From Candidatus Poriferisocius sp. (GTDB taxonomy: Bacteria > Actinomycetota > Acidimicrobiia > Acidimicrobiales > Bin134), in the NCBI RefSeq assembly GCF_965202595.1, contig NZ_OZ241836.1:932202-996201 (forward strand): a stretch of 64,000 bases of DNA, written 5' to 3'. Of the stretch, positions 12,471 through 60,524 are shown in pieces. The translations under genes and the position numbers were made by a program. How positions within the stretch are numbered: the stretch's first letter is position 1; each line of letters opens with the position of its first letter. Below the pieces are notes generated by a model that saw only the letters and a list, made by a program, of their open reading frames with translations, made no database searches and had not been told where the DNA came from.

Positions 12471-14384
12471 GTGCGCCGGCTATCGACCTTTTTGGTGGTG
12501 GCCATGGTGTTGTTCGGCGCTGCCTGCGGTGGCGGGGATGAAGACATCGGCCGATCCCCTGCGGGGACTCCCTCGACTGCGGCCTCCCCCGGCCCGGTCG
12601 CGCCCAGTCCTACCCCAGGAGCCACGAAACCTCCGCAGGAGCCGGCATCGGAGCCGACCGCCACTCCGGCCGCCTCACGGGAAATCGAGGCCGACCCCGA
12701 TCCCAGCGAGGCTTATTTCAACCTGGAGCGTGTGCTCGACATAAGCATCCAGATCGACACCGGGGATTGGGATGTTCTGCGCAACCAGACCCGCACTTTC
12801 CAAGATTTAATTGCCGAAATCGGGGAGTACGAACTTTCCCGGCCGTTCTCCGACATCTATTCCTGGTTCCCGGCCACGGTGACGGTGGACGGCGAGACAC
12901 ACACCGATGTCGGGGTGCGCAAGAAGGGTTTCATCGGATCCCAGAGCAACACCAAACCCGCGCTCAAGCTGCGCTTCGACAAGTACGTGGACGGTCAAAG
13001 CCTGGGCGGGGTCATCGAGAGAATGACCTTGAACAACAGCGTCCAGGACCCCTCCATGCTCAATACCTGCCTCGCCTACCGGGTGTTTACCGCCGCGGGC
13101 AATATCGCCCCGCGCTGCAACTTCGCCACGGTGTCGGTGAACGGCAGCGACCTCGGGCTGTACGTGCAGGTGGAGGAGATCAAGGCCCCGTTTTTGGCCC
13201 GCCACTTCGACAGCACCGGGGGCAACATCTATGAGGGCACGGTCAGCGATTTCACCGAAACCTACCGGGGCACCATCGAGAAGAAGAACAACGAGGATGC
13301 CGGTGACTGGTCGGACATTCAGGCAGTGGTGGAGGCGTTGGAGGATTCCTCTGAGCGAGGGTTGAAAAAGCTGGGCGAGATCGTTGATCTGGACAGGTTC
13401 CTAACCTTTTGGGCCACCGAAGTGCTGGTGGGACATTGGGACGGGTACGCGGGCAACCGCAACAACTACTGGTTCTATCGCGAGCCGCAGGGCCGTTTCG
13501 TGTTCATTCCCTGGGGTGTTGACGGCACCTTCCACCTGGAGGACGACCCCAATCCCTTCGACAACATCTCCAGCCCTCCCCCGTCGGTGCTGGCTCTGTC
13601 GGCCATCCCCAACCGCCTCTACAGCCACCCCGATTGGAGGGCGGCGTATGCCAAGAGGCTGGAGGAAATCCTCGATACCGCCTGGGACGAGGATGAACTC
13701 CTAGCCCTGGTGGACGAGATGGCGGCCATCGTTCAGCTCCATGCCCTGCCTGAGGAAGCCGAAGCCGCCGCTGCCGGCACCGAGCGGGTTCGCAAGTTCA
13801 TCCACGAGCGAAGGGGTGAGATACTCGCCGATCTCGTCCCCTCTCCACCGCACTGGCCGGGGTCGGCACCAGCCCCACCACCCCCCGCCGCCGTGGAGAC
13901 CGTGGAGGTTGCCTTCGAGACCACATGGGGCAGCCACCTCAACCCCGACCCTGTGGGGATGGGATCCATCAGCAGTCTGCTACTGAACGGCTCGGAGGAA
14001 ACCGCCGAGAACGTGGGGGTCTTCTCCGGCTATCCCAGCCCGGAGGAGAAGGCCCTGCTCCCGGACGTGGCCGAAACCGCCGCCATCGTGTTGATGAACT
14101 TCGAGGAGGACGGTTCCACCAGCGGGATGACCCTGGTTGTGGATCTGGCTCTGGTCGAAGCCGGTGCCACGCTCGCCATCGGTTCCGATGCGATCGCGGG
14201 AGGAGTGTGGTACTTGCCGCCCGGCGCTACCTCCCCCGAGTGGTTCTCCCCCTTCGTTGACGGCACGCTGGAGCTTTCCAGGGCGGGCACCGATACGGAG
14301 GATGTGATTGCCGGAAACTTCTCGGGTGTCTTCGGGGATGGCGCGGAGCCGGCCGCCGGTGTCAGGGGACTTCCGAACCGTTGA
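12471..14384 (+). CDS. CotH-family (kinase-like) lipoprotein
   Basis: Signal and lipobox MRRLSTFLVVAMVLFGAACGG. The central region ...GHWDGYAGNRNNYWFYREPQGRFVFIPWGVDGTF... resembles the CotH core. Confidence 0.65.
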   Translation: MRRLSTFLVVAMVLFGAACGGGDEDIGRSPAGTPSTAASPGPVAPSPTPGATKPPQEPASEPTATPAASREIEADPDPSEAYFNLERVLDISIQIDTGDWDVLRNQTRTFQDLIAEIGEYELSRPFSDIYSWFPATVTVDGETHTDVGVRKKGFIGSQSNTKPALKLRFDKYVDGQSLGGVIERMTLNNSVQDPSMLNTCLAYRVFTAAGNIAPRCNFATVSVNGSDLGLYVQVEEIKAPFLARHFDSTGGNIYEGTVSDFTETYRGTIEKKNNEDAGDWSDIQAVVEALEDSSERGLKKLGEIVDLDRFLTFWATEVLVGHWDGYAGNRNNYWFYREPQGRFVFIPWGVDGTFHLEDDPNPFDNISSPPPSVLALSAIPNRLYSHPDWRAAYAKRLEEILDTAWDEDELLALVDEMAAIVQLHALPEEAEAAAAGTERVRKFIHERRGEILADLVPSPPHWPGSAPAPPPPAAVETVEVAFETTWGSHLNPDPVGMGSISSLLLNGSEETAENVGVFSGYPSPEEKALLPDVAETAAIVLMNFEEDGSTSGMTLVVDLALVEAGATLAIGSDAIAGGVWYLPPGATSPEWFSPFVDGTLELSRAGTDTEDVIAGNFSGVFGDGAEPAAGVRGLPNR

Positions 14385-14430
14385 CAACCCCACACCGGGA
14401 GCTGCCAACCGGCAGTAGGCGTGTTTTTCC
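14371..14430 (+). repeat. Boundary repeat F, copy 1; overlaps the cotH-like stop codon
   Basis: ttccgaaccgttgacaaccccacaccgggagc is identical to 19804-19835. The next ~28 bp are roughly 75 percent similar. Confidence 0.85.
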
Positions 14431-14454
14431 CAATTCGTCAGGCGCTCCGCAACT

Positions 14455-16980
14455 CTATGTCTCTATCACCAAGGGCACATCGGCTTGGTTTGCTATCGGG
14501 GTCCAAAGGTCTACCTCAATCTCAGGTGATTCGACAGACACGATGAGTGCGTAGCGAACACCATCCTTGCTCCGGTCGCGTGACTTGCGCTCTTTCCACC
14601 AACCTGTCACGGGATAGACAGCGATTGCTCCGCGTGCGGCAAGCTCAACTGCGGGCCCCTTCCAGTGATCAACATGCAATGACCCGCGCACCCGTTCTTG
14701 GGGACCAAGCAACCATTGACCGCTGTCCCTCTCCGAAGTTGGGCGTTCTTCGCCCTCGGCAAGAGCGAGCTTGTTGATTCGCTTGCGAAAGTCATCGGTG
14801 GTTTCGGTAGGCTTCCGCACGTCGAATCGGAGACCGTGGGAGGCGTACCGGAACCGTCGTGTCCAGCCACGCCGAGCTGGATTAGGCTCAATGAAGTAAG
14901 ATAAAACGACTCGCATCTCCACTATTTCTTCACCGAGACCACTTAATACATCAGTGGGCCATGGGAGACTGTGCAAGTGCATCTCGCGCATCCTGCCGTC
15001 GCGATAGGGGTGAATTAGGTTCTGGCTAATTAGCGTGACCGAATCGTTGGCAGACCGTAGCGCTCGGCTTATGTCGGGCACGCCCCATCCGTAGCGACGT
15101 AGCTTCGCTACGGTACTTTGTCGATTGGCTCCGTTGAAGTGGCCTTTCATGGTCTCGGTCCAGCGGGCGGAATGAACAATCAGACCCCGAATAGTCTCTG
15201 GCCACAGGTGCGGGTACTTGGTCGACAGTTGTTGTGCGAGATGAGCTGCCTGAGCGGTGGCTGGGCTCGTACCAGCAGCCGTGGTGAGGAGCCTACCCCC
15301 AAGCACTGGCGAGCGTGTAGTGAGGAGTTGGAGGCCGGGAGGGGTATCTATCGACTGGTTCGACGGAGAGATCGCTGCGTTTCCACCCTCGAGAACTATT
15401 TCGGGTTTGTGAGGCCACTGTGTGCGAAAGCTGACTGAGGTCCGGCTGAAGGGAGACAGCTCACCTATTTGCGCAAGTGGTTTCCAACCCTTGAAGTCCT
15501 CGTGGTGAATGTGAGATAGATTGGTGTAAGCACCGACAGTCAAGGCATTCCATGCCTGGCCGGGATCTTCGACCGGTTCAATATCGCTTCGCTCAAGGTG
15601 GTTCCTGTCGTAGGGGCCGCGTACATTACCGGACGCAACGATGAACAAGCGTTGCGCATTACTAGCGGGTTTGTCGATATAGATCAGGTTGCCTTCAGAA
15701 GCAAAGACTGCGCGGCCAGCTGCAAGAGCGTCGATGGTGGATGACCACGCCGACGGCTCTCCAAGATGTGAAGGGTACATAGCTGTGTTGGTGGCTGTGA
15801 CTGCGAGAACAAATGTCCGATGCCGCTGAGGTTGGTTGATCTCAACAATCGATATTGCCTGCGCAGTTATGGCACCGTAAAACTGGGGGTCATTCTGTCC
15901 TGTGTTGGGCAGGATTTTTACCGACTCAATCCAGCCCTGAACATTGACCGGACCACCAACCATAAGGCACTTGGCTAGATCCCCATAAACCACCAGTCCG
16001 GCCATCTCGGTGCCATGTCCTCGACGATCATCGCTGCCCCAATGAGGCTGGACGCTATGAGCATCATTTTTCGAAATCGCAACACGGAGCAATGGATGGC
16101 CTATCGCAATTCCCGTGTCCAAAAGACATGTCACAGCCGCGTTATCAGGTGGCACAACAAGCCTCCCTGCCAACTCATCAACGAACTCACTCTGCTCAGA
16201 AGCGGGCAGTTCAGCCAGAAACTGGGTAGCTTCAACCGGATGGCGAAGCTCAGCAAGGTCATCAAGAAGGTCGAGTGCTGTTCCGAGCTGAGCTGGAGTG
16301 GCTCGCACGAGCATGACTATGCGATCCTCAAACGCAAGTTGTTGATGTTTTATCTCCATACCAGTGATCTCAGCGAAACTCAAAAGTCGTTGATCAGCTC
16401 TCTCACGGTGACGCAGCCACAACTCCCACCAAACTGCCACATCGCTATCAGGGAACTCGTCTGGGTTTTCGGTCCACAAAGCACGAAGCGTTGCCAGTCG
16501 CACCCCTGCGATCCTCTCGACCAGATTTTTGTTCTTTGGGTTACCGCCCGTGGTATCTTCAGAAATGTATTCCTCAAAGCGCTTTATGAATTTACCTACC
16601 CAGTCATCAGGAATAAAAACAGTAGCAAGCTGAGTGGGTTTGCCGTCAATATCTCTTGTCGTTACAGCGCACAGTTCAGGGTGAACGCTCCCCTGTTGCG
16701 GTTCGAGCGAGGTCAGTGCTAACTCGAAACCAGGTTGTGACTCGAACTCCATGTAGATGCCATCGAGAGCACCTTCAACCCGAACTGCTCCATGGTCATC
16801 CTTGCGCTTTTGAGATTCTCCGACGGCAATGCCAAACTGTTTGAGGAGTTTGTCACCGTGCTGCACCCGGTCGGACGGTGATGGCGGTGCCGTTAGCCAA
16901 GGAGCGGCTGCAAACGGTTTGTACTCATCGATATGGGGATCCCGCGTCATTATCACATGGGATCTGTTCCGTTCTGCCAC
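14455..16980 (-). CDS. S8 (subtilisin-like) serine peptidase, IetS-like
   Basis: Catalytic triad contexts LLDTGIAIGHP (Asp), GHGTEMAG (His) and AAGTSPATA (Ser). It starts 9 nt downstream of the AAA+ gene. Confidence 0.85.
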   Translation of the reverse strand: MAERNRSHVIMTRDPHIDEYKPFAAAPWLTAPPSPSDRVQHGDKLLKQFGIAVGESQKRKDDHGAVRVEGALDGIYMEFESQPGFELALTSLEPQQGSVHPELCAVTTRDIDGKPTQLATVFIPDDWVGKFIKRFEEYISEDTTGGNPKNKNLVERIAGVRLATLRALWTENPDEFPDSDVAVWWELWLRHRERADQRLLSFAEITGMEIKHQQLAFEDRIVMLVRATPAQLGTALDLLDDLAELRHPVEATQFLAELPASEQSEFVDELAGRLVVPPDNAAVTCLLDTGIAIGHPLLRVAISKNDAHSVQPHWGSDDRRGHGTEMAGLVVYGDLAKCLMVGGPVNVQGWIESVKILPNTGQNDPQFYGAITAQAISIVEINQPQRHRTFVLAVTATNTAMYPSHLGEPSAWSSTIDALAAGRAVFASEGNLIYIDKPASNAQRLFIVASGNVRGPYDRNHLERSDIEPVEDPGQAWNALTVGAYTNLSHIHHEDFKGWKPLAQIGELSPFSRTSVSFRTQWPHKPEIVLEGGNAAISPSNQSIDTPPGLQLLTTRSPVLGGRLLTTAAGTSPATAQAAHLAQQLSTKYPHLWPETIRGLIVHSARWTETMKGHFNGANRQSTVAKLRRYGWGVPDISRALRSANDSVTLISQNLIHPYRDGRMREMHLHSLPWPTDVLSGLGEEIVEMRVVLSYFIEPNPARRGWTRRFRYASHGLRFDVRKPTETTDDFRKRINKLALAEGEERPTSERDSGQWLLGPQERVRGSLHVDHWKGPAVELAARGAIAVYPVTGWWKERKSRDRSKDGVRYALIVSVESPEIEVDLWTPIANQADVPLVIET

Positions 16981-16989
16981 CTTCCGGCC

Positions 16990-17970
16990 TTACTCAGATG
17001 GTGAGATGACCGATACCTGTCGCGCCTGGAGCGCTTCCACCAGGAGCTTTGTACCTACTTTCTCCTGGTCAATTAGGATCGCTTCTTTGGCTGCCTGTTC
17101 AGCAGCAGCCGTGATCTCCGAGTGGCTCAAACCCTTTGCTATCGAGGACACCTGCTGCCAACACACCGTTCCGAGATCAAACATGGCGAGGCGATTGCGG
17201 ATCACCTGCTTGGCGATCTCCCCCGACGGCATCGGGTAGTTCAACATTACGTCGAATCGGCGGTAAAGAGCTCGGTCAAGATGCTCAGGCAGATTTGACG
17301 TGGCAATAATAACGCTGTTGGACGCGTCTTGCTCCAAAAACTGGAGGAACGAGTTGAGCACCCTGCGAATCTCGCCGACATCGTTGCTGTTGGTGCGTGC
17401 TCCGGCGAGCGCATCAACCTCGTCGAACAGGTATGCTCCTGCGGTCTCGGCTAGTTGATCGAAAATGAGTCGCAGCTTCGCCGCTGTCTCACCCATGAAC
17501 TTCGTAATTAACCCCTCTAGCCGAACGGTGAACAACGGAAGGCGCAACTCCCCTGCCAGCACCCGCGCCGTCAGTGTCTTCCCCGTCCCTGGCGGGCCAA
17601 CCAGCAACAGGCGGCGCAGAGGCGCGAAGCCTGCTGCTCTGAGCCGGTCCCGTTGCCTCTGTTCATGTAACACTCTACGCAGCGCCGACAGTACATCCTT
17701 GTCCAGCGACAAGTCCGATAGTCGCTGTTCGGGATACTCCACTGAGAGCAGCGAAGCCAGATCGCCGCGCGGCGCAACCATCGGGGTAGGTACTGCCTTC
17801 GCAGAGCGCCCTTTCGCGGCGTCAATCAACTCCCGCAAGTCCTGCGCGTACCCTGCATGACCGTTACGAGCTTCCCGAGCCGCCATCTGAAGGGCGACCG
17901 CGTAGAACTGGTAGTCGTCGCCCGCGGCGTGACTCCTGATCAAAGCCTTCACTTGATCCGCTGTAGCCAA
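16990..17970 (-). CDS. AAA+ ATPase, IetA-like
   Basis: Walker A GPPGTGKT and Walker B YLFDEVDAL. It is the first gene of a two-gene operon with the S8 peptidase. Confidence 0.85.
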   Translation of the reverse strand: MATADQVKALIRSHAAGDDYQFYAVALQMAAREARNGHAGYAQDLRELIDAAKGRSAKAVPTPMVAPRGDLASLLSVEYPEQRLSDLSLDKDVLSALRRVLHEQRQRDRLRAAGFAPLRRLLLVGPPGTGKTLTARVLAGELRLPLFTVRLEGLITKFMGETAAKLRLIFDQLAETAGAYLFDEVDALAGARTNSNDVGEIRRVLNSFLQFLEQDASNSVIIATSNLPEHLDRALYRRFDVMLNYPMPSGEIAKQVIRNRLAMFDLGTVCWQQVSSIAKGLSHSEITAAAEQAAKEAILIDQEKVGTKLLVEALQARQVSVISPSE

Positions 17971-18126
17971 CCTCTACACCTCGCTCAGTCCTTCAACCTA
18001 TGTTAGATGAAGATCATGGCCTGAGCCATGGAAAGGTTGACCATCCTGCCAGCCGCCCCAACGGTATCTGCCGTCGCAGCGTGGACGGTGGGGGCAGGGC
18101 ATCTGTGGACCGTGACGAGCTCCTCA

Positions 18127-18158
18127 CCCAACCGAACTGTCAACAACCTCCATAAGGG
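18127..18158 (-). repeat. Dispersed repeat E copy (reverse orientation)
   Basis: cccaaccgaactgtcaacaacctccataaggg is the reverse complement of the core at 30297-30328. Confidence 0.8.
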
Positions 18159-18163
18159 TGAAG

Positions 18164-18196
18164 GCTGACAGCCCGCTGCGCGTCCAAATTGTCAGC
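18164..18196. promoter_or_regulatory. Inverted repeat GCTGACA-N19-TGTCAGC in the divergent ietA / DUF4143 intergenic region
   Basis: Arms at 18164-18170 and 18190-18196. This is only a possible operator. Confidence 0.2.
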
Positions 18197-18249
18197 TAGT
18201 AGCCGTCTGATTAGTAGTGTATCTTCCGTCGATTCGGTAGTCTTGTGGT

Positions 18250-19521
18250 GTGGGGTATCAGCGCCGGATTGTTGACGAGGAACTTGATGAGCTTCTCACG
18301 GGCTTGCCGGCAGTATCACTGGAGGGCCCCAAGGCTGTGGGTAAGACCGAGACGGCGCTGCAACGTGCAGGCACTGTTCATCGGCTGGACGACCCGGGGC
18401 AACTGGAGATTTTCCGTGCCGCTCCGGAGCGTCTGATCAGCGGTGATCCACCGGTACTCGTGGATGAGTGGCAACGGCTACCAGCTTCGTGGGACCTGGT
18501 CCGCCGGGCGGTTGATAGTGACCCGGCACCGTCAAGGTTCTTGCTCACCGGCTCGGCAGCACCTGCCGAAACTCCCATCCACTCGGGTGCCGAACGAATC
18601 CTCACGGTGCGTATGCGACCGATGTCTCTGGCGGAGCGAGGCCTTGAGGTTCCTTCGGTACGACTCGCCGAGATGCTCTCCGGCTCACTTCCAGCACTCG
18701 GGGGAGCCAGTCGGATCGGGCTGGCCGACTATGCCGAGGAGATCACAAGGTCCGGGTTTCCCGCCATACGCCAGCTCAGCGGCCGGCTGCTTCGGTCGCA
18801 GCTCGATGGCTACATCGACCGCATTGTCGAGCGGGATTTCGTTGAAGCCGGTCACCGAGTGCGGAACCGAGGCGCACTTCGCCGGTGGCTCAGCGCTTAT
18901 GCTGCCGCATTATCCACGACCGCGTCCTACGAGGTGATTCGGGATGCGGCGACCCCGGGCGAGGACGACAAACCGGCCAAAACCACCACGGGCCCGTACC
19001 GTTCCACCCTTGAAGGGCTTTGGATAATCGAAGATGTTCCGGCCTGGGCACCGTCCCGCAATCGATTGCGTCGCCTCGGCGCCTCTCCTGTCCACCAACT
19101 TGTTGACCCCGCACTTGCAGCTCGGCTACTGGGTACCGATACCGACGCACTCCTGGGCAACAAACCGGCAGGACCTCCCGTGCCCCGTGATGGCACACTG
19201 CTGGGCGCGTTGTTCCAGTCGCTGGTGACCCTGTCTGTGCGCACCTACGCACAGGCCAACGAGGCTCGAGTCAGCCACCTGCGCACCCACGGGGGCGAAC
19301 ACGAGATCGACCTAATCGTGGAACGCAGGGATGGCCGGGTTGTCGCCCTTGAGGTGAAGCTCGCCGCAACAATCCATGACAACGACACCCGACATCTTCA
19401 TTGGCTTGCCAACACGATCGGCGAGGATCTCCTTGACGCAGCCATCATCACCACGGGCACCGAGGCCTACCGCCGCCCCGACAAAATCGGCATCATCCCC
19501 GCTGCCCTCCTTACTGCGTAG
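18250..19521 (+). CDS. AAA_14/DUF4143-type ATP-binding protein
   Basis: P-loop EGPKAVGKTE, followed by ...VLVDEWQRLP... and a C-terminal ...EIDLIVE...VALEVK... (restriction-endonuclease-like fold of DUF4143 proteins). Confidence 0.7.
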   Translation: MGYQRRIVDEELDELLTGLPAVSLEGPKAVGKTETALQRAGTVHRLDDPGQLEIFRAAPERLISGDPPVLVDEWQRLPASWDLVRRAVDSDPAPSRFLLTGSAAPAETPIHSGAERILTVRMRPMSLAERGLEVPSVRLAEMLSGSLPALGGASRIGLADYAEEITRSGFPAIRQLSGRLLRSQLDGYIDRIVERDFVEAGHRVRNRGALRRWLSAYAAALSTTASYEVIRDAATPGEDDKPAKTTTGPYRSTLEGLWIIEDVPAWAPSRNRLRRLGASPVHQLVDPALAARLLGTDTDALLGNKPAGPPVPRDGTLLGALFQSLVTLSVRTYAQANEARVSHLRTHGGEHEIDLIVERRDGRVVALEVKLAATIHDNDTRHLHWLANTIGEDLLDAAIITTGTEAYRRPDKIGIIPAALLTA

Positions 19522-19803
19522 CGCCCAATCCCAGAAGAGACATCACCTCGATGCGGGCACGCTCACCCGCATACAAACTCTGTGCCGTACTGAACTACCT
19601 CCACAGGTAGATTGTGAATACCTCAGACTGACCATCATGGCCGACCTGTCGCGATCACCAGTTGAGCCTGCCGTCGCTCGGGGCTGATATCGCCAACGAT
19701 GTCAGTAAACTTGCGGTGTCCCACTGGTCTTGCTCCTTTAGTCGGTTGTGTCATCGAAGGCCAGGGCCAGAGCTACGCCCGCATCCCCGACGTAACCGGG
19801 AAT

Positions 19804-19862
19804 TTCCGAACCGTTGACAACCCCACACCGGGAGCACCCAACCGCCCATAGCCGTGTTTTCC
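19804..19862 (+). repeat. Boundary repeat F, copy 2
   Basis: Direct repeat of 14371-14430. Confidence 0.85.
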
Positions 19863-19899
19863 GGGCCTGGGGCTGTCGCACGCCTGGGCTATTGTTGGG

Positions 19900-20130
19900 T
19901 TGATGCGACCCACCACCGTCAGGCTCGACGATGAGGACGAGGCGATCCTTGACGTTCTCGCCCCCGAGTACGGAGGCCGTTCAAGCGCCATTAGCCAGGC
20001 GCTTCGCAACCTTGCCCTTGAGTGGCAACGCCAGGAGGCCCTGCGAGGGTTTCTGACCGAATGGGAAGAAGAGGAAGGACCGATTTCGGACGGGGAAGTC
20101 GCTGCCATGGCCGACCGCTACGGGTTGTGA
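19900..20130 (+). CDS. Ribbon-helix-helix (CopG/VapB-like) antitoxin
   Basis: MMRPTTVRLDDEDEAILDVLAPEYGGRSSAISQALRNL is a classic RHH N-terminus. Confidence 0.7.
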   Translation: MMRPTTVRLDDEDEAILDVLAPEYGGRSSAISQALRNLALEWQRQEALRGFLTEWEEEEGPISDGEVAAMADRYGL

Positions 20131-20216
20131 TCCTCGATGCCGGCTTCCTCATCTCGGTTGATCGCAGCGATCAACCGGACAGCTTCCATGTAAATCCGGA
20201 TCAAGCAACCTCGTAG
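20127..20216 (+). pseudogene. Truncated PIN (VapC-like) toxin remnant
   Basis: The GTG overlaps the antitoxin stop. VILDAGFLISVDRSDQ... matches a PIN N-terminus, but the frame stops after 29 codons, where the lower-GC R-M gene begins (20201). Confidence 0.5.
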
Positions 20217-22843
20217 ACCTTGACGACCTCGTCGCCGTAGTCGTTGATGACCTTCACCGCTATCTTGCCGGTGGATGGCTTTGGGAATGGTCGGCTCACC
20301 GTCGAGTACAAGGTGGCCCATGCCTCATCATTGATATCTGCTCTCAACGCTGTCTTCAGTCGCTTGTAAGGTTTCTGGCCGCCGGTGAAGTAGCAGTGGC
20401 GGACGAAGAAGCTCTCCTCGTTGTAGTCGGTGTCAATCATCCAGAGGGCGACCTTGTCCGTCCCGTCCGAGCGCACCTCACCGGTGGTTGGGTCATAGAC
20501 ATCCACTCCGATCAGTTCCACTACAACCTCGCCAGCTTCCTCTCGGATCTCGATGTCCGGTTCTCCAAAGACGGTGAATAGGTTTCCGGCCCCGGTTTTC
20601 CTGAGTTCCTCGCCCATCAGCAGGTCTGCGTTCATCCGAACGAGTAGAACGGGGATACGGCCCAGAGACCTGGTGGCAGCGACATCGAAACTCTCGTCGG
20701 TGGCAACGTAGTCCTCATCAGTGTTCAACACCTGGGGATCGAAGGCGAACGCGAGAATACATAGAAGGTCCAAGTCTTTGTCCTTGTTGGCTTCTCTCAC
20801 AGCATTCTTCACAAAGGATGGGGCAACCGTCCCGTACTGGGGCCCGATAGATACCCCAACGTGATTGGGTGCGCTACCTTCACGGATGCCAACCGCCTGC
20901 ACATGTGTACTGGCATATGGTTCGATCATGTCGAATACTAGTCTTTCTGCCCTACGACCGTTCTGGATACCCGCTGTTCGTAAGTTTTCGAGGATCATTT
21001 GTTCGAAGATAGTCTCGGTATCGCCAAATGTAAGATTGTCATCCGATTTGTAGGTTTTAGGGCTGGCAAGGTTGCGGTGTGGTGAGAGGCTCTCAACCGT
21101 GAAAGGTCCTGTTACTCGAACCTTGTGAGGATCCTCGTAGGGCTTGTCGTATAGCAACTCCTGATCAGCGTGCTTGGCAATCGCAGCATCGATCTCCTCC
21201 TGCTTCATCCCATCGTGGATATCGGGGTTGTTGGCAATTGACCCAAGCGTGATGTGGGGTACACGCTCGTACACGAAACCTCGCCCGATGTCATTGGTCA
21301 TCTCCTGGGTCGGTAACTCCATACCTGCTAGTTCGCTTTCCTTCGCCCATCCCTCAATTGAATCGGCAAGCAGAAAATAGGGGTATCGAGCCCCCATCAA
21401 TCGCTGACGTGCTAACGCCAGAGCAACCCGCGAGGAGTCGATGGTGATCCATCGTCGCCCCCAACGTTCAGCCACGTAGGCGGTGGTGCCCGAGCCGCAG
21501 GTCGGATCCAGCACAAGATCGCCGGGATCGGTTGCCAGCAACAGGCATCGCTCTACAACTTTTGTGTTGGTCTGGACCACGTAGATCTTGTCATCGGTAA
21601 ATCCACCTGTTCCAGTGTCATCCCAAAAGTTGGTTCTTTTTTGATAAGGAAAATCTTGAATGAATCGTCGATAGTGAATGCTACCCTTTGTTACATGAAT
21701 ACGATTTGCATAAGCTAAGCGATTCATGCCGTCGGGATAAGATGCCTTCCAGTGGTGGTTGGGGCCCGGTCTGTAAGTCTTACCGGCATAAGTGAATGCT
21801 TGATCGGCTGATGCTGGCCCCTGGGACTTCAAATCACTGGCCTTGTAGAGAATTGAGTCTTTGGGTATATTTTCAGCAGATTCCGTTGCCTTGAGCCCAC
21901 GACTACTTCCATCTTCAAACAACAACCAGCGGTATCCCTGCCTGTCAGGCGCATTGACCCATTGGGGACGGCTCTTCAGGTTATCAAGCTGCTTGGCGTA
22001 CCAAAGCAGGTAGTCGCCATTGCGGGGGAGCGCCTTGGATTGCGTAAAACCACTCGTGGTGACAAAGGAGATCAAGCTCACAAAGTTCTCGGCCCCGAAT
22101 ACCTCGTCAAGCAGGTTTCGCACCAGGTGGACATTCTCGTCACCGATCTGCAAGAAAAGCGAACCGCTAGCGGTCAGTAGATCGCGAGCAATAGCCACTC
22201 GGTCGCGCAAGTACGACAGGTAGCTATGAACACCCAGTTCCCAGGTGTCTCGAAACGCTCTGACCTGCTCAGCTTCGCGAGCGACATCATCAACCTTTCC
22301 ATCCTTGACCTCTCGCTTCCTTGCTGATACCTGCCAGTTGGAGCCGAACTTGATCCCGTAAGGCGGGTCGATGTAGATCATCTGAACCTTTCCCCGGAGC
22401 CGTTCGCGTTCGGCGAGGCTGGCCATCACCTGGAGGCTATCACCCAGTATCATCCGGTTGGACCAGTTGGCCGAATGCTTGTAGAACTCGACGAGGTCCA
22501 GTTCACCCAGCCCGTCGAAATTGTCGAAGAGGGTGAGTTCGGGATCGGGCTCCCCCGCCGAAGCCGTCTTTCGGAGGTTCTCGATGAGGACCCGCGGGTC
22601 GATCTTTTCCTGAATGTAGATCGGGGGTGCGTCAACCTGGAGGTCATGACTATCGAGCTCCTCCTTGCCCTTCCAGACCAGCATCGGGGAATGGATGTGG
22701 CGTGGATAGGTGACCTCGACGACCTCCTCTACCTCCGGTGCCACCATGTCTCGGGCATCGGCGGTTGGAATGTTGGTTCTCTTGTCCGGGTGGACGATCG
22801 CGTCCACGGGTGTCGGGCCTTGCTGGGTCCTGCGGCGTGCCAT
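20201..22843 (-). CDS. mod: Type III R-M DNA methyltransferase (Mod, beta-class N6/N4)
   Basis: Motif IV IYIDPPYG precedes motif I VLDPTCGSGTT, with a long region between them (type III Mod order). I prefer the start MARRRTQQG, which has AGGAG 8 nt upstream. Confidence 0.85.
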   Translation of the reverse strand: MARRRTQQGPTPVDAIVHPDKRTNIPTADARDMVAPEVEEVVEVTYPRHIHSPMLVWKGKEELDSHDLQVDAPPIYIQEKIDPRVLIENLRKTASAGEPDPELTLFDNFDGLGELDLVEFYKHSANWSNRMILGDSLQVMASLAERERLRGKVQMIYIDPPYGIKFGSNWQVSARKREVKDGKVDDVAREAEQVRAFRDTWELGVHSYLSYLRDRVAIARDLLTASGSLFLQIGDENVHLVRNLLDEVFGAENFVSLISFVTTSGFTQSKALPRNGDYLLWYAKQLDNLKSRPQWVNAPDRQGYRWLLFEDGSSRGLKATESAENIPKDSILYKASDLKSQGPASADQAFTYAGKTYRPGPNHHWKASYPDGMNRLAYANRIHVTKGSIHYRRFIQDFPYQKRTNFWDDTGTGGFTDDKIYVVQTNTKVVERCLLLATDPGDLVLDPTCGSGTTAYVAERWGRRWITIDSSRVALALARQRLMGARYPYFLLADSIEGWAKESELAGMELPTQEMTNDIGRGFVYERVPHITLGSIANNPDIHDGMKQEEIDAAIAKHADQELLYDKPYEDPHKVRVTGPFTVESLSPHRNLASPKTYKSDDNLTFGDTETIFEQMILENLRTAGIQNGRRAERLVFDMIEPYASTHVQAVGIREGSAPNHVGVSIGPQYGTVAPSFVKNAVREANKDKDLDLLCILAFAFDPQVLNTDEDYVATDESFDVAATRSLGRIPVLLVRMNADLLMGEELRKTGAGNLFTVFGEPDIEIREEAGEVVVELIGVDVYDPTTGEVRSDGTDKVALWMIDTDYNEESFFVRHCYFTGGQKPYKRLKTALRADINDEAWATLYSTVSRPFPKPSTGKIAVKVINDYGDEVVKVYEVA

Positions 22844-22853
22844 TGGAGTACTC

Positions 22854-25947: not shown

Positions 25948-26045
25948 CAGGTTCCTCCGAGCAAACCTGTGTGATTCGACATTCAACCCATATTAGACGA
26001 AGGGTGTGACATCAGGGAGGAACTCGACGGGGTTGCCGCCTTCAA

Positions 26046-30328: not shown

Positions 30329-30340
30329 GTCGCTCTGCTG

Positions 30341-32454: not shown

Positions 32455-32463
32455 GGGGTCGTC

Positions 32464-49967: not shown

Positions 49968-50120
49968 GCCACAAGCGGCCAGGCGGGCCCATCTTCGGAG
50001 GTTCTTTGGATGGGTTGCGGTGTCGATACCACAAACGGCCAGGTGGGCCCATCTTCAGAGGTTCTTTGGATGGGTTGCGGTGTCGATGCCACAAGCGGCC
50101 AGGCACCAGGTGGGCCCAAC
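49968..50120. repeat. 60-bp tandem repeat (about 2.5 copies) in the divergent SDR/aroC intergenic region
   Basis: The unit gccacaagcggccaggcgggcccatcttcggaggttctttggatgggttgcggtgtcgat is found at 49968 and 50028, with a partial copy at 50088. Confidence 0.9.
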
Positions 50121-53958: not shown

Positions 53959-54566
53959 AGCCCCTCGGTGCTGTGCCGGAGGAACGCCAGGAACTCCCCC
54001 ACCGGCACGGGTTCGGACACATCGGTGGGCTCGTCGGGGTGAGACTCCCAGAACTCCCGGTAGGTGGGCCAGAACTCGTGCCAGGCCCCCTCGTAGGGCT
54101 CCTCACCGGGCCAGCGCATCTTGTTCTCCCCCAGCGGCGGCGCGTTCAGATCGGTGGCGTACCAGTACAGGGGCAGCCTCCGCCGGAAGTACCACCGGCC
54201 GTCGATGCGCTCGTAATCGTCCCAGTACATCATGGTCATTATCACCCACTCATCGCCGGTCTCGTGCTCGTTGCGGGAGTAGACCACCCCGTGAGCCCGG
54301 TCGGGGCCGTCGAACTCGATGATGTGGTTGCCGGTCACGTGGGCGGTACCGCTGAACTTGCCGCCCATCGTCTCGCGGAACCATTCGGCCAGCGCGGCCC
54401 GTCCCGAACGCCCCCGACCCACCCGCACATCGGCCGGGAACAGGCCGACCCAGGCCTCGGTGGCCCGCATGTCCAGTGCCAGGCAGTAACGGGCGGCCAG
54501 ACCTCGGATCTCCTCGATCGACTCCAACCGCTCCAGCCGTTCCTCCATCGATTCCCCGGTTCCCAT
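53937..54566 (-). CDS. SnoaL-like / NTF2-fold protein
   Basis: ...LERLESIEEIRGLAARYCLALDMRATEAWVGLFPADV... is typical of SnoaL_4-type proteins. I prefer the start MGTGESMEERL. Confidence 0.6.
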   Translation of the reverse strand: MGTGESMEERLERLESIEEIRGLAARYCLALDMRATEAWVGLFPADVRVGRGRSGRAALAEWFRETMGGKFSGTAHVTGNHIIEFDGPDRAHGVVYSRNEHETGDEWVIMTMMYWDDYERIDGRWYFRRRLPLYWYATDLNAPPLGENKMRWPGEEPYEGAWHEFWPTYREFWESHPDEPTDVSEPVPVGEFLAFLRHSTEGLPHVRVR

Positions 54567-54689
54567 GGCCGGCAACCTACCCGGTCGGTTCCACCCGTAT
54601 GCGGCCCGTACTTCACTGTCAGCTATTTCCATCCTGGTGTTGCAGTTGCTCACACCCGCACGCGGCCCGTACCGCTAGCCGGTTCCCCA

Positions 54690-54969
54690 CTAGGTGTAAC
54701 TCTTATGGAGGTTGTTGACAGTTCGGTTGGGTGAGCCTGCGATGCCGTTGTGGTGGTTGTAATCATGTCCATCTGGGTGGCGGGGGAGGCTCTGTGTCAC
54801 ATGCTAATGCGTTTTTGATGCCTGGGGGGCGGTTGTTGATGGTTCAGCGGGTTGGGGATGGTTCGGGCTCACAAACCCACCGCCGAAACCAACTCCAACA
54901 CCGCACCCACCACCACACCGCCATCGGCAACACACCCACATCAACAACCTCCACGAATGTTACAACTAG
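54690..54969. mobile_element. MITE-like unit bounded by inverted copies of repeat E
   Basis: The left arm is ctaggtgtaactcttatggaggttgttga (54690-54718). The right arm is tcaacaacctccacgaatgttacaactag (54941-54969). The arms are about 80 percent complementary with CTAG outermost. No coding capacity is seen inside. Confidence 0.45.
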
Positions 54970-55030
54970 TTAGGGAATACCACCTGGGTGGTGCGGGGTC
55001 GGCCACCAAGAATCGGTTGAAAGCAAAGGT

Positions 55031-55052
55031 GGGTCCCCGTCGGGGTTGACCC
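55031..55052 (-). terminator. Possible terminator hairpin downstream of the FN3-array gene
   Basis: gggtccccgtcggggttgaccc is an imperfect hairpin about 50 nt past the stop. On the reverse strand it is followed by acctttgctttc, a weak U-tract. Confidence 0.3.
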
Positions 55053-55100
55053 AGGGTGGTGGGGGGGCACCCCGGCGGGGAGAAATTAGGCGGAGGTGGG

Positions 55101-58100
55101 TTAGTTGTTGCAGATGTCGTTGTTCAGATCGGCAACGCGGTCGCCGTAGTTGCCACGGCCCAGGCGGCGGCACTCCTCAGCGAGGGCGGCTCTGTACTCG
55201 TCGCGGTAGGTGGCGGCCAGGGTGTCGCCGGCTTTTTGGCGGGCTATGGCCTCACGCCGGGTGTAGGGCAGCGAGCACACATCGGCCACGCCGTCACCGT
55301 CGCTGTCGAGGGGGTAGGTGGTGGGCCCACCCAGGGAGCGGTTGGCGCACCAGGAAGGCCCGGTGATGGTGCCCGAGTAGTAGGGGCCCCCGTCGTTGGG
55401 AGGCGGGAACCCCGGTGCGGCCAACTCATCACCCCCGCAAGCCTCGTTGCCGGGCTGGTTGGCGCACTCGGCGTTGACGAGATCCCGGTACAGGTCTGGG
55501 TACCGGTTGGCCAGGGTGATCACCGCGTTTTGTCGGGCTATGGCCTCACGGCGGGTGTAGGGCAGCGAGCAAATATCGGCCACCCCATCCCCATCGCTGT
55601 CGAGGGCGAACAAGCGGACCCCACCCAAAGAGAACTCCGCACAAAAACTCGGACCGGTGACCGGACCGGAGTAATAAACCTGATCACTGGGGGTGTCACC
55701 ACCAGGAGCATCGTCGCCGGAGGTGATGGTGGACGATGTGCCTGCGGAGCCGGCACCCACTGCGTTGATGGCTCGCACCTCGAACACATAGGCCACCGGA
55801 CCGGTACCAGTATTAGTACCGGTTATGACCGTGCTCATCGTGGCCGCCCCAACATCGGCCCACTCACCAAAACCAGCGCTCTCGATGCGGGTACGCCACT
55901 GCCAACCCGTCACCGCAGAACCCCCATCGGCACCCGCCATCCAAGTAACGGTGATGGTCCCATCGGTAGCCGTCGCTGTGACGCTGGGAGCAGCAGGTAC
56001 CGCAGCAGGTGTCGCCGACACCGAAGCCACAGCACCAGCACCCATAGCGTTCCGGGCCCTTAGGTGGAACGCGTAGCTAGTGCCATTGACCAGATCCGAC
56101 ACCGGCACCGAGGTGGCATCATCCATCCCGGCCAAATCCACCCACTGGCCTTCATCGACCCGCAAATGCCAACCCGTCACCACAGACCCACCATCGGTGC
56201 CCGGTGTCCACGACAAAGTCACCGTTTCGTCACCGGGCGTGGCGGTAACCATGGGAGCATCAGGCACCGTGGCCGGCATCGCAGTGTCAACCCCAACGGC
56301 ACCGGCACCCATCACGTTTCGGGCTCGAACCTGGAAGGTGTAGGTGGTGCCGTTGGCGAGATTCTGAACCGGCACCGAGGTGGTACCCGCAGGATAACTA
56401 GCCCACTGGTCGGTACCGGTGCGCAACTGCCAACCCGTCACCGCAGAACCACCATCACCACCCGGGGTCCAGCTCACCGTCACCGCCTTGTCACCAGCCA
56501 TGGTGGTCACCGCCGGCGCATCAGGCACCGTCGCCGGCATCACCGTCGCAGTACCAGCGGGGCCGGCACCAATCCTGTTCAGCGCTCTGACCTCAAAGGT
56601 GTAGGCAACACCATTGGTGAGACCATCGATGTCGCGGGTGGTGGTAGCGGCAGGCACATCAACCCAAGCCCCGTAACCAGCGGTGCCGGTTTTCATCCGG
56701 TACTGCCACCCGGTAACCGCAGCAGCCCAGTTGGACTCCCCCGCCACCCCGCCAGCACCAGCGGCCCAGTTCAAAGTGACCTTCATATCCGCAGCGGTGG
56801 CGGTCACCGACGGGGCGGGGGGCACCGCCGATGGGGTGACAGGATCGGACTCGAACGCCGCCCCAATCACCTGAACATTGGTGGTCACCGCCCGCACCTG
56901 GAACGTGTAAGCCCGCCCGTTAGCGAGATCATCCACCACCAGGCTACGCGCCGCCGCCCCACCGGTTACCGCGGTCCACGAACCGTAACCCCCACCATCG
57001 GTTTTCATACGATACTGCCAACCCGTAACCGTGCTACCCCCCGTGTTCGGTGCATCCCACGACAACGTGACCCGACCATCACCAGCAGTCGCAGTTAATG
57101 AACCGCCAGCGGGTGCGCCGATCGGTGTTATCGGACCAACCACCCCCGCGGCGGGGCCGGCACCGAACTGGTTCACCGCTCGCACCTCGAACTCATAGGC
57201 CACCCCGTTGGTCAGGCCCCGCACCGGCACCCCTGCTGATTCGGCCAAATGGCGGGCCGGTGGGGTGATACGAGCTCCCAACGATTGCCACGCATCAAAA
57301 CTGCTGCTACCGCTGCGACGCACCCGAACCTCATAACCCAAAACCGCAGAACCACCCTGAGGGGCCAACAAAGTGACCCTCACCCCACCATCGGCCGGTG
57401 TCACTGCCACCTGGCGAGGCGCAGTGGGCGTATTGCCAGGGGTAACCGGCAACGACTGCGCCGGCGCGCCCTTGTTGACAGTGGTAGTCACAGTATCCAA
57501 AACACCCTCGCTGTCGAGGGCCATCAAAGCGTTCACCGCCCGCAGGCGGAACCGGTACGTCGAGCCGTTGGTCAAACCTTTTATCACCGCTTGAGTCGTC
57601 GACGGCCCACTACCCGGAACCGGAGTCCACTCATCGTCCCAACCACTCCATGAGGTATTCGCGCCCGCAGCTTTTGAATCCTTGATGTATTCCCAGCGGA
57701 TGATCGGCGGACCCCCCGAACCCACCGACATCCACGACAGGGTTACCTGACCATCACCACCGGCAGCAGCCAACCCTGCCGGGGCGGGGGGTGCCACACC
57801 CGGTATCACCACCTTGTCGGGGTAAACATCGGCAGCTTTGTTGTGCAAACCGGCACCGTTGGAATACAACGCAGGACCCGCCAACCAACCGGTGCCGTGC
57901 CGGTTCCGCGCCCTGACCCGGAACTCGTAGGCCACCCCATTGCGCAAACCCGACACCACGATCCCGTCGCCAGCCACATCGGCGCTGTTCGCAGCCCGCC
58001 CCGCGAACCTTTGACCAACGTTGGACACCGCCCACGGCGACCACTCACCACCGGCGGGACGATACGAATACTCCCAAACCGTCTCACCAGAATAAGTGCC

Positions 58101-60431
58101 ATTGGTGTTGGTGAAAGCATTCTCATAACCAATTACAAAACGACCACCGCGGCTTACAAACCTTGCTTTGGGTCGAACGATGTTCAACTTCACCTGACCA
58201 TTACCCGGCACCGCCAACACCTCCGGACGAGCGGAGGATGAACCCGGCCAACCATCAGCACCGGGCAAAGGCGGAGCCCCGAACACAAACGGCACCGACT
58301 CGACCGCATAACCCGCCCCCACATCAGACACCGTCCGGGTCCTGAACGTGTAAGTCTCCCCAACCCGGAAAGTGACCTCATCGAAACGTTCGGTTGCTCT
58401 ACCCAAGCTACCCTGTTGAGTAACCCATCCACCCCACGGCCCATCACCGACCTTCCACGACCACTCAAACCGCAAACGCTTACCACCATGAAGATAACTC
58501 AAAGGAGAGGTTACCCCCATGTGAGGGCGACCACCGGTGCGGGGATCACCAGTATAACCCCTCAAAACCGCCGTCAACGCCATCGAGGGAACACCCTTAG
58601 CAATGTTCACCCTCACAACTCCAGACTCCAAACCCAAACCCCTGGCATTCTCCGCCCGCAACACGAAAAAATGATCCCCCACCTTCAAACTCCCCACACA
58701 CAACCTAGCAAAACACGAAGTTGCATTCTCGTGATCCAAGGTCCGATTCCTGGGCAGCTTCACCGTCGACAACCCCGCACACATCGGATCCAACCCCGCT
58801 GTGTTATCACACAAATCCCGCCACAACGCGCTGGTCAACCCGTCCACCGTTGTCGCATGTTTCAACTGCCACTTCGTCACCGGAGAACCACCATCGGAAC
58901 CCGTCCACGACAAAACCACCTGATGCAACCCTATCGCGTAATCCGACACCATCTCCGCGGACACCGCCGGTGCCGCCGGAACCGTCCCCGGATAAACAAC
59001 ACCCGTCTCAGCCACCGCACCCGCACCAACACTACTCACCGCCCGCACCCGGAACCAATACCCCACACCCGCCGTCAAACCCGTAACCGTAAACTCTCTG
59101 GTCGTGTAGTCACCCGGTATCGCCACCCAACCACCCCACTCACCATCACTAGCCCGCACCGAATACTCATAACGCCTAAACCCATCACTATTTATTAAAT
59201 TAGTCGGCTGGCGCCACCTCAACGTTACCGACGACTCCGTCACCTTCGTCGTCTCCAACTCACGAGGCACCTCCAACACCGTACCCAAATACACGAACCC
59301 GGAACGCGCCCCCACACCCCCGCCCAACGCGCTGACAGCCCGCACCTCAAACAAATAACTCTCGGTATTATCCAAACCAGTCACAAAATAAGACCTGGCC
59401 CCGGCCCCACCAGGAACCCGGTTCCAACCAGCTTCCGCCAAAGTGCTGTAATTACCGTCCGACCACCGAACTTCCCAACCCGTCACCGGCGAGCCAACCA
59501 CCCCCGGCGGCTGCCACGACAACAACACCGACTTATCCCCCGGTGTCACCACAAAGTTACGAGGAGCACCCGGCGCACCCCCCACTACCACCGGCCCCAC
59601 CTCACCTGTGGCACCGTTGCCATGCTTGTTAACCGCCCGCACCCGGAACGAATACCCAACATCATTAACCAAACCCAAAACCACGAACGAATCACGATCC
59701 CCAGCCGAACTACCATCATCGGCCATCACCGACCACCCCGACCACTTTCCATCACCTTGTTTGGTCGCGTACTCGTACCGCAAAATAGGAGCAAACCCCG
59801 ACCCCGCCACCTCACCGGAAGCCTTGGTCCACTTCAACTCCACCTGAGAATCCCCAGCAACCGCCCGCAAACCCCCCGGCACCGGCGCAACACTGGACAC
59901 CAAATGCCCATCCACCGGACTCATACTCAAAATCTGGCCCACTCCCGCAGCGTTCACCGCCCTTAAGAAGAACCGGTACCTACTACCAACCGTCAAACCC
60001 GACACCACCACCGACCGAGCAGCCCCACCACCGGGCACCGGCCGCCACACAACCCCACTACGATCCCCCGAAGTAGGCGCTAAACTCGTAGAAGTATCCA
60101 CCACCCTGTCCTCCGGCGGATCCCACGTGGTCCCATCATCGGTCGATTGCGAAAACACATACTCATAACCCACAACCCCCACAGTGGCCGGCGGCGGCCC
60201 CCACGACAACCGCACCGCACCACCACCCAACACCACCACCTGCGGCGACGACAGAGTATTCGGCACACTTTGCGCACCCGCACCCCCCACCCAAACCAAC
60301 ACCGACCCCAACAACCCCACCAAAACCAGGAGCCCAAAACAGGGCAGCCCTAAACGACTACCCCCCCCCCCCCCCCGGCTAGAACCCAAACCAACCCGCA
60401 AAAAACTCAACATAACCCCCACTATAACCAC
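55101..60431 (-). CDS. Giant secreted protein: signal peptide, ~14 fibronectin type III repeats, and two C-terminal Cys-containing DSDGDGVAD (TSP3/Ca-binding-like) modules
   Basis: The FN3 signature (Y.F.VRA.N..G.G) recurs 14 times. The C-terminus carries two copies of ...YYSG..TGPS.C...LDSDGDGVAD.CSLPYTRREAIARQ... The N-terminus ...RLGLPCFGLLVLVGLLGSVLVWVGGAGAQS is a signal peptide. Confidence 0.85.
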   Translation of the reverse strand: MVIVGVMLSFLRVGLGSSRGGGGGSRLGLPCFGLLVLVGLLGSVLVWVGGAGAQSVPNTLSSPQVVVLGGGAVRLSWGPPPATVGVVGYEYVFSQSTDDGTTWDPPEDRVVDTSTSLAPTSGDRSGVVWRPVPGGGAARSVVVSGLTVGSRYRFFLRAVNAAGVGQILSMSPVDGHLVSSVAPVPGGLRAVAGDSQVELKWTKASGEVAGSGFAPILRYEYATKQGDGKWSGWSVMADDGSSAGDRDSFVVLGLVNDVGYSFRVRAVNKHGNGATGEVGPVVVGGAPGAPRNFVVTPGDKSVLLSWQPPGVVGSPVTGWEVRWSDGNYSTLAEAGWNRVPGGAGARSYFVTGLDNTESYLFEVRAVSALGGGVGARSGFVYLGTVLEVPRELETTKVTESSVTLRWRQPTNLINSDGFRRYEYSVRASDGEWGGWVAIPGDYTTREFTVTGLTAGVGYWFRVRAVSSVGAGAVAETGVVYPGTVPAAPAVSAEMVSDYAIGLHQVVLSWTGSDGGSPVTKWQLKHATTVDGLTSALWRDLCDNTAGLDPMCAGLSTVKLPRNRTLDHENATSCFARLCVGSLKVGDHFFVLRAENARGLGLESGVVRVNIAKGVPSMALTAVLRGYTGDPRTGGRPHMGVTSPLSYLHGGKRLRFEWSWKVGDGPWGGWVTQQGSLGRATERFDEVTFRVGETYTFRTRTVSDVGAGYAVESVPFVFGAPPLPGADGWPGSSSARPEVLAVPGNGQVKLNIVRPKARFVSRGGRFVIGYENAFTNTNGTYSGETVWEYSYRPAGGEWSPWAVSNVGQRFAGRAANSADVAGDGIVVSGLRNGVAYEFRVRARNRHGTGWLAGPALYSNGAGLHNKAADVYPDKVVIPGVAPPAPAGLAAAGGDGQVTLSWMSVGSGGPPIIRWEYIKDSKAAGANTSWSGWDDEWTPVPGSGPSTTQAVIKGLTNGSTYRFRLRAVNALMALDSEGVLDTVTTTVNKGAPAQSLPVTPGNTPTAPRQVAVTPADGGVRVTLLAPQGGSAVLGYEVRVRRSGSSSFDAWQSLGARITPPARHLAESAGVPVRGLTNGVAYEFEVRAVNQFGAGPAAGVVGPITPIGAPAGGSLTATAGDGRVTLSWDAPNTGGSTVTGWQYRMKTDGGGYGSWTAVTGGAAARSLVVDDLANGRAYTFQVRAVTTNVQVIGAAFESDPVTPSAVPPAPSVTATAADMKVTLNWAAGAGGVAGESNWAAAVTGWQYRMKTGTAGYGAWVDVPAATTTRDIDGLTNGVAYTFEVRALNRIGAGPAGTATVMPATVPDAPAVTTMAGDKAVTVSWTPGGDGGSAVTGWQLRTGTDQWASYPAGTTSVPVQNLANGTTYTFQVRARNVMGAGAVGVDTAMPATVPDAPMVTATPGDETVTLSWTPGTDGGSVVTGWHLRVDEGQWVDLAGMDDATSVPVSDLVNGTSYAFHLRARNAMGAGAVASVSATPAAVPAAPSVTATATDGTITVTWMAGADGGSAVTGWQWRTRIESAGFGEWADVGAATMSTVITGTNTGTGPVAYVFEVRAINAVGAGSAGTSSTITSGDDAPGGDTPSDQVYYSGPVTGPSFCAEFSLGGVRLFALDSDGDGVADICSLPYTRREAIARQNAVITLANRYPDLYRDLVNAECANQPGNEACGGDELAAPGFPPPNDGGPYYSGTITGPSWCANRSLGGPTTYPLDSDGDGVADVCSLPYTRREAIARQKAGDTLAATYRDEYRAALAEECRRLGRGNYGDRVADLNNDICNN
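60361..60376 (-). repeat. C16 (coding-strand G16) homopolymer inside the first 25 codons of the FN3-array gene
   Basis: I counted 16 consecutive c at 60361-60376. They are read as CGG GGG GGG GGG GGG GGT (RGGGGG). Confidence 0.95.
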
Positions 60432-60492
60432 ACCCTCCCCCCGCGCAAGTACCCCCTACAAAACCGTCACGACCACCAGCAGAGCTAGCCCA

Positions 60493-60524
60493 CTGTCAAC
60501 AACCTCCGTAGGCGCTACAACTAG
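60493..60524 (-). repeat. Dispersed repeat E copy (reverse), 60-90 bp upstream of the FN3-array gene start
   Basis: ctgtcaacaacctccgtaggcgctacaactag matches the right arm at 54941-54969 and the reverse complement of 30286-30316. Confidence 0.8.

Follow-up and report, generated by a model that had tools for sequence, protein, structure and literature searches.

Within a 64,000-nucleotide stretch of the genome of Candidatus Poriferisocius sp. (contig NZ_OZ241836.1, positions 932,202 to 996,201; hereafter the window), a block of lower G+C content at ~14.4-30.3 kb (0.50-0.58, compared with 0.62-0.68) forms a defence island beside a cotH gene, and a giant FN3 gene lies further downstream on the minus strand. 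These two regions carry seven short repeats, five of a long form (E) and two of a short form (F). The preliminary description of this DNA had treated them as a single dispersed family marking cassette boundaries and had proposed a recombination or mobilisation site. We conclude with high confidence that they are instead of two unrelated and ordinary kinds: five remnants of the ends of IS481-family insertion sequences (ISs) and two duplicated copies of the last codons of cotH.

A pattern search of the window found the E core GGAGGTTGTTGACAGTTCGG exactly at 18132-18151 (minus strand), 30303-30322 (plus) and 54707-54726 (plus), and with three mismatches at 60488-60507 (minus), against a chance expectation of 0.02 matches; four or more matches were obtained in none of 100 shuffles. 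The fifth E copy (54941-54970, minus) is more divergent and forms an inverted repeat with 54689-54718 (30 nt, 83%). The F core GGGGTTGTCAACGGTTCGG occurs exactly at 14373-14391 and 19806-19824, both on the minus strand, with 0.03 matches expected by chance and again 0/100 in the shuffle controls, and lies within a 63-nt direct repeat of 87% identity (14365-14427 and 19798-19860). The seven copies and their coordinates, far above chance, were thus confirmed, and their placement was as earlier described: F1 and the E copy at 30286 (c1) mark the outer edges of the low-GC island, the E copy at 18127 (c3) and F2 are internal to it, and the E copies at 54690 and 54941 (c2 and c5) and at 60493 (c4) lie on either side of the FN3 gene. 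All copies are outside long open reading frames (ORFs), as reported, apart from F1, which runs over the cotH stop. The notion of one repeat family did not hold, and neither did the description of F as resembling E with a ~12-bp deletion, because the two cores match ungapped at 15 of 19 positions and no deletion is required.

Each E copy represents a terminal inverted repeat of an IS481-family insertion sequence. From outside to inside the copies read CTAG, (G/T)TGTA(A/G)C, six variable bases and GGAGGTTGTTGA, or, in summary form, CTAG as the target flank, TGTA as the terminus, 8-9 nt and the core GGAGGTTGTTGAC. In an alignment of the ends (A3) the five window copies stand in register with, and match column by column, the ends of complete IS481-family elements of other Actinomycetota, whose transposases pass NCBIfam NF033577. 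The alignment splits them into a left, transposase-proximal inverted repeat type (IRL; ..GACRGTTCGG), comprising c1, c2 and c3, and a right, distal type (IRR), comprising c4 and c5. CTAG adjoins c1 (30286-30289), c2 (54690-54693), c5 (54966-54969) and c4 (60521-60524), and beside this flank all four have the TGT-starting outer end in the form (G/T)TGTA(A/G)C; c3, being truncated, has no terminus. The copies fall into at least two sub-types: c4 is like the element at locus L051 (see below), and c1-c3 and c5 are like another. Since the core GGAGGTTGTYGAC is common to diverged IS481-family elements, it is the probable subterminal segment of the repeat to which the transposase would bind.

When 185,579 species genomes were searched for a pattern that includes both the E and the F core, 68 loci were returned, most of them chance-like. 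Eight (L011, L020, L037, L038, L043, L050, L051 and L061) are clear IS481-type ends and two, both in Nocardia (L031 and L064), are possible remnants; at L020, L038 and L043 the E-type ends are cut off where the contig stops, as commonly happens with repeated IS elements. Two loci hold complete elements. L051, from a Frankiales metagenome-assembled genome, contains a 1093-bp IS that reads CTAG, GTGTAGCGACTACGGAGGTTGTTGACG ... CGCTACAT, CTAG, with 31-nt inverted repeats (84%); its transposase, of 330 aa, reaches 290 bits on NF033577, 'IS481 family transposase', against a cut-off of 224. L037, on a Ca. Poriferisodalis chromosome, has 26-nt repeats (96%), and its transposase reaches 274 bits on the same model. 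CTAG flanks are present in L051, L037, L038, L020, L043 and L076. A further full-length element, at L078, encodes the 319-aa transposase P0151. The source genome itself encodes at least one annotated IS481-family transposase, P0225 (WP_419917605.1, on the 3,037,168-bp contig), of which the copy in L076 is 5′-truncated and CTAG-flanked.

These features agree with those of known family members. The actinobacterial IS481-type element ISLxc2 is 1105 bp long, with repeats that start TGT and a direct repeat NCTAGN, and ISRe46 has CTAG as target, the TAG of its right repeat providing the transposase stop (PMC2516522, PMC6794481). With ISLxc2 of Leifsonia xyli, ISRe46/TnRErm46 of Rhodococcus equi and IS481 of Bordetella pertussis, the E copies and their full-length relatives share the TGT repeat start and the CTAG or NCTAGN flank, and the full-length relatives also share the length of ~1.1 kb and the DDE (rve) transposase with an N-terminal helix-turn-helix or leucine zipper and a gene start ~100 nt from the left end; in L078, the closest full-length relative, the transposase gene takes its stop from the TAG of the flanking repeat, as in ISRe46. 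Unlike these members, the window holds one 282-bp derivative and three solo ends but no intact copy, and the E repeat (TGTAAC-N6-GGAGGTTGTTGAC) is unlike the published ISLxc2 and ISRe46 repeats. The parents of the E copies are unnamed members of the family.

The segment 54689-54970 is an internally deleted IS481-family element. It spans 282 bp, is bounded by c2 (54690-54735, plus; IRL, recognised by the core search, the inverted repeat with c5 and the alignment) and c5 (54941-54970, minus; IRR, ending ...GTTACAA and then CTAG), and has CTAG on both sides. As the sole two-ended copy it falls short of the family length of ~1.0-1.1 kb and is a derivative, not an intact member. Its positions 54727-54850 align to the 5′ untranslated region and gene start of the full-length L078 element (74%, E = 4e-15), and 54869-54943 (plus; ..HHTAIGNTP..) to the 3′ end of the L078 transposase gene (L078 2335-2427; 72-86%, E = 5e-8); the ~780 bp that separate the two parts in L078 are absent, so that the first ~33 and the last ~25 transposase codons are retained. 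The gene start remnant (54794-54895, plus; VSHANAFLMPGGRLLMVQRVGDG...) corresponds to residues 1-33 of IS481-family transposases (MSHANARLTPAGRLLMVQR...) at 56-70% identity and was the single coherent match in the window when it was searched by tblastn with 120 such transposases. This comparison identified the remnant: the 59-aa fusion ORF of the transposase remnants, which are the only ones in the window, scored on no profile, and a protein search with it gave no candidates. The element resembles the internal-deletion derivatives known as miniature inverted-repeat transposable elements in having both inverted repeats and target flanks without the transposase body, but it differs from a true family of that kind in being a single copy with no evidence of amplification. 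The region coding for the transposase N terminus (54829-54866) resembles the inverted-repeat core twice (GCGGTTGTTGATGGTTCAG and GGTTGGGGATGGTTCGG), which could be coincidental or could reflect a binding site inside the element. In Ca. Poriferisodalis, L011 7177-7723 is a further IS481-family copy with an internal deletion, its IRL intact and the 5′ part of its transposase gene gone; decay by internal deletion is therefore common for these elements.

The other three E copies, which were recognised by the core search, their inverted repeats and the alignment, are solo end fragments of 33-45 bp. c1 (30286-30328, plus) is an IRL-type end that reads CTAG and then GTGTAACCCTTATGGAGGTTGTTGACAGTTCGGTTGGG; it retains the terminus with 43 nt, and in place of the deleted interior of the IS comes the end of the amidohydrolase gene (30341). 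On its outer side c1 adjoins the truncated start of an RHH antitoxin gene (30244-30290, plus), a 5′ remnant that is 85% identical to 19896-19942 and whose similarity ends at the outer end of c1. c3 (18123-18159, minus), between the start of IetA (17970, minus) and the DUF4143 ATPase gene (18250, plus), is a 37-nt internal fragment of an IRL-type end, cut on both sides and therefore without the terminal GTGTA and the CTAG flank. c4 (60492-60524, minus) is an IRR-type end, reading CTAG and then TTGTAGCGCCTACGGAGGTTGTTGACAG on the minus strand, that keeps the terminus and ~33 nt between the FN3 start (60431, minus) and the aldo/keto reductase gene (60560, plus); it is like the IRL of the complete L051 IS at 25 of 27 positions (manual count), and its region is identical in the independent assembly L069.

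The F copies are of a different nature: they are the 3′ coding end, with ~10 nt of flank, of a cotH gene that includes a lamin-tail domain (cotH-LTD), present twice. They encode GDFRTVDNPTPGAANRQ and EGQGQSYARIPDVTGNFRTVDNPTPGAPNRP, each followed by a stop codon, which is the conserved C terminus of CotH-LTD proteins. By translation and tblastn, F1 (14353-14427, plus) comprises the last 21 codons (PPVSGDFRTVDNPTPGAANRQ and stop) and F2 (19756-19860, plus), a displaced gene-end fragment, the last 31 codons (EGQGQSYARIPDVTGNFRTVDNPTPGAPNRP and stop), each with the ~10-nt 3′ flank. Most CotH homologues are ~780 aa long, carry a C-terminal lamin-tail domain (PF00932) and, aligned with the window cotH product, end ..GQSYARVPDTTGDFQTVDNPTPGAANQP before the stop. 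When the C-terminal 200 aa of the homologues P0018 and P0057 were used in tblastn, F2 was matched at 19756-19848 (73.5% over 34 aa, E = 2e-11) and F1 at 14353-14412 (75% over 20 aa, E = 1e-5), with no other match to the lamin-tail domain in the window. The window CotH itself is without this domain, according to both the domain scan and the homologue alignment; F1 is joined to cotH one base out of frame, and as a result the cotH ORF ends ..AAGVRGLPNR within F1. Homologous DNA at L073 reads CCAAACCGTGGACAACCCC and still codes for QTVDNP, differing from F at synonymous or conservative positions, which fits selection on the protein.

Several other CotH homologues are also without the lamin-tail domain, including P0070 (L071) and P0109 (L072 11860-11920); the latter ends ..DDSGA|ANQP before its stop, which looks like an in-frame deletion of the domain that spared the last four codons. 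Loss of the domain seems to be recurrent in this lineage. A hairpin in F (CTGCC-AACC-GGCAG) was dropped from consideration, since it is found in F1 only and is not kept in F2.

F1 and F2 bracket a 5.4-kb module (14428-19755) containing IetS, IetA, c3 and the DUF4143/AAA_14 ATPase gene, and they do so as direct repeats that match the target gene end, with a 32-nt identical core between diverged arms. The F1 region is identical in the independent assembly L077, and the only other contigs of the source organism, L069 and L077, are 99.9-100% identical to the window; every relative examined has different genes downstream of cotH. The bracket has the signature of a scar, from recombination or integration, at the 3′ end of cotH, such as a decayed integrative island or a recombinational swap could have left. 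In the first case F1 and F2 would be the attachment sites attL and attR of an island that had integrated into the 3′ end of cotH-LTD, its attP carrying the replacement gene end, much as gene 3′ ends are duplicated at island borders in tRNA and protein genes. The direct repeats of a conserved gene end around foreign DNA of lower G+C content, the identical core with diverged arms and the variable gene content downstream of cotH among the relatives are all in keeping with such an origin. It is nonetheless an unlikely one in our judgement, because the bracketed segment holds no integrase or excisionase, the similarity continues beyond the identical core in both directions, as it would between homologous gene ends, cotH was not restored but lost its lamin-tail part and was shifted in frame, and no second example was found. 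In the collections scanned, the F core gave one unrelated Ruminococcaceae-like match in metagenomes, and none of the F-type core matches among the 185,579 genomes has the flanking sequence of F.

A rival reading makes E and F together the sites of a dedicated site-specific recombination system, attC-like or att-like, which assembles defence cassettes. What stands of the earlier recombination or mobilisation proposal is that the copies are non-random, tied to DNA mobility and rearrangement, and located at the junctions of the variable region: they occupy the island edges and two internal junctions, and F1 and F2, with their 32-nt identical core, surround one module as direct repeats. We nevertheless regard a dedicated system as highly improbable. 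E has the full end anatomy of the IS481 family and F is cotH-LTD coding sequence; c3 is truncated on both sides, and three of the E copies are solo fragments. No copy separates the restriction-modification-like (RM-like) module (20201-25986) from the cyclic-oligonucleotide-based antiphage signalling system (CBASS; 26046-29943). Pfam scans of the larger ORFs of 14.4-30.3 kb and several flanking ORFs revealed no integrase or recombinase, and the 19-nt F core was not found in a related context in the genome or metagenome collections scanned. The likeness to integron attC sites and cassette arrays, short repeats between gene cassettes, is superficial; as judged from the genes and the copy positions, the modules here contain several genes each, occur in both orientations and do not all have a copy at their borders, and no integron integrase was found. 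The earlier suggestion of portable promoters or operators, in which the TTGACA of the solo E fragments would serve as a -35 box reading into IetA and FN3, fares little better and is in our view quite improbable. The hexamer is indeed present in every long copy and points to IetA from c3 (~165 nt) and to the FN3 start from c4 (~60 nt), and ISs in general are known to provide hybrid and outward promoters. However, a consensus scan found no -35/-10 pairs with 16-18 nt spacing in 14000-20300, 29900-30500 and 54400-60700, hence no sigma-70-like site at any copy, and inspection of c1-c4 by eye showed no TANNNT at a distance of 16-18 nt downstream from the hexamer; actinobacterial promoters rely chiefly on the -10 box. 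The copy at 60493 precedes the FN3 start by 60 nt and, on its other side, the aldo/keto reductase gene (60560, plus) by 36 nt. The hexamer is explained by repeat function, since it belongs to the core kept in both ends of diverged IS481-family elements.

Chance similarity or a local duplication artefact, for which the small motif size alone would speak, can be practically dismissed: both cores gave 0/100 in shuffles, and the c4 and F1 regions are identical in L069 and L077, respectively. An Rfam search of the whole window at the gathering threshold returned no matches, terminator-like sites near the copies were at or below shuffle expectation, and none of the motifs for GlnR, LexA, the PafBC/RecA-NDp promoter, IdeR and dif fits the repeats.

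Several observations weigh against IS481 end remnants and a duplicated gene end as the explanation. The 15/19 likeness of the F and E cores has a family-wise chance of a few percent (a rough estimate), which is not negligible, and the only other 19-mers in the window that differ from the E core at four positions or fewer are those of F1, F2 and a single site in the transposase remnant. Given that dozens of repeat families could have been compared and that F is constrained as protein, the resemblance is most likely coincidental, and it is doubtful that the F core is a cryptic transposase site. The bracketed segment is without a recombinase gene that might have duplicated the cotH end. A tblastn search of the window with two transposases found no full IS481-family gene, and within the window, the part of the source genome covered, there is no full-length parent with ends identical to c1 or c2. 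In L051 the hexanucleotide flanks differ (CCTAGG and TCTAGC), so that only CTAG, not NCTAGN, is demonstrably duplicated. Finally, the CTAG flank of c1 creates an in-frame TAG in the RHH remnant (30244-30290), and simple insertion into an intact gene therefore does not explain this junction, which requires an earlier nonsense mutation or a deletion next to it. There is also a bolder possibility: the cotH-LTD 3′ end could be a dedicated integration site for defence modules in these sponge-associated Acidimicrobiia, with F1 and F2 as the att scars left when a recombinase provided in trans moved an IetAS/DUF4143 island, or an IS481-family transposase could have used the F core as a surrogate end and so mobilised adjacent defence genes. 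We consider this a long shot.

With IS481 debris and a duplicated gene end as the preferred reading, the history of the region may be reconstructed as follows. IS481-family elements of ~1.1 kb, encoding a DDE transposase, inserted at CTAG; one insertion persists as the 282-bp internal-deletion derivative with both ends (54689-54970), and three only as solo end fragments after deletion of the remainder of the element. The F copies (the last ~17-31 codons and ~10 nt of flank), which bracket the IetAS/DUF4143 module, suggest that DNA was inserted at the cotH 3′ end, probably through recombination with a donor that had its own copy of that gene end, and the part coding for the lamin-tail domain may have been lost in the same event or later. 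In this reading the copies lie at cassette boundaries since stacks of foreign modules are where IS insertions, decaying ISs and recombination junctions gather, and neither E nor F mediates cassette exchange. The apparent seven-member family is accordingly corrected to IS481 debris and a gene-end duplicate, with no new recombination or regulatory element to count. The defence island of this sponge-symbiont lineage (IetAS, DUF4143 ATPase, RM-like and CBASS) was built and remodelled beside cotH amid IS481-family activity, and the pair of cotH 3′ ends around the IetAS module offers a usable marker for tracing the arrival of that module.

The giant FN3 gene (55101-60431, minus, start at 60431) is enclosed by c2, of IRL type, and c4, of IRR type (54696-60518), which are correctly oriented around it, have ACTAGG at both flanks and match at 85% in their ends. 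A single transposon extending from c2 to c4 and carrying the FN3 gene was considered and judged unlikely, and hexanucleotide flanks need not match, as L051 illustrates. In L071, a Ca. Poriferisodalis relative, a giant FN3 gene lies in a partly similar neighbourhood of cotH, RHH and amidohydrolase genes, suggesting that the FN3 gene of the window is probably not a passenger. Some 55-70 nt inside the 5′ end of the FN3 ORF there is a poly-C tract of 16 (60361-60376; poly-G in the coding sense). Over 400 nt the independent contig L069 departs from the window only in having 17 C in this tract, and the difference could be phase variation or a homopolymer error, the latter being an option because the L069 contig has only 2x coverage.

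The remaining features of the window were assigned as follows. Downstream of the cotH ORF (12471-14384, without the lamin-tail domain), the domain scan identified IetS, an S8 peptidase (14455-16980, minus), IetA, with an AAA domain (16990-17970, minus, start at 17970), and the DUF4143/AAA_14 ATPase (18250-19521, plus). An RHH antitoxin ORF (19900-20130) is followed by what appears to be the N-terminal fragment of a PIN-type toxin (..VVILDAGFLISVDRSD; region 19900-20216), which ends abruptly at the end of the methylase gene (20201-22903, minus); Pfam gave no match for either the antitoxin ORF or the PIN-like fragment. The methylase gene opens the RM-like methylase/ResIII block (20201-25986), in which a 729-aa ORF (22854-25043) between the methylase and the ResIII helicase-like ORF has no Pfam match; it overlaps both neighbours, and frameshifts in a Type III/ISP-like restriction module are therefore possible. 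The CBASS operon consists of E1/E2 (26046-27779), SMODS (27776-28783) and SAVED-HNH (28780-29943) genes; the amidohydrolase gene that ends at 30341 follows c1, and the aldo/keto reductase gene starts at 60560 on the plus strand. Near-perfect tandem duplications with units of 33-60 nt in 2-4 copies were noticed at 5929-6087, 32454-32589, 38401-38502, 40389-40468, 42800-42928 and 49969-50104, several of the short tandem duplications being positioned at gene starts or ends: a 34-nt unit includes a stop codon, and a 59-nt unit, whose array is also present in the independent assembly L077, carries a start codon and the first ~19 codons of the ABC ATPase gene.

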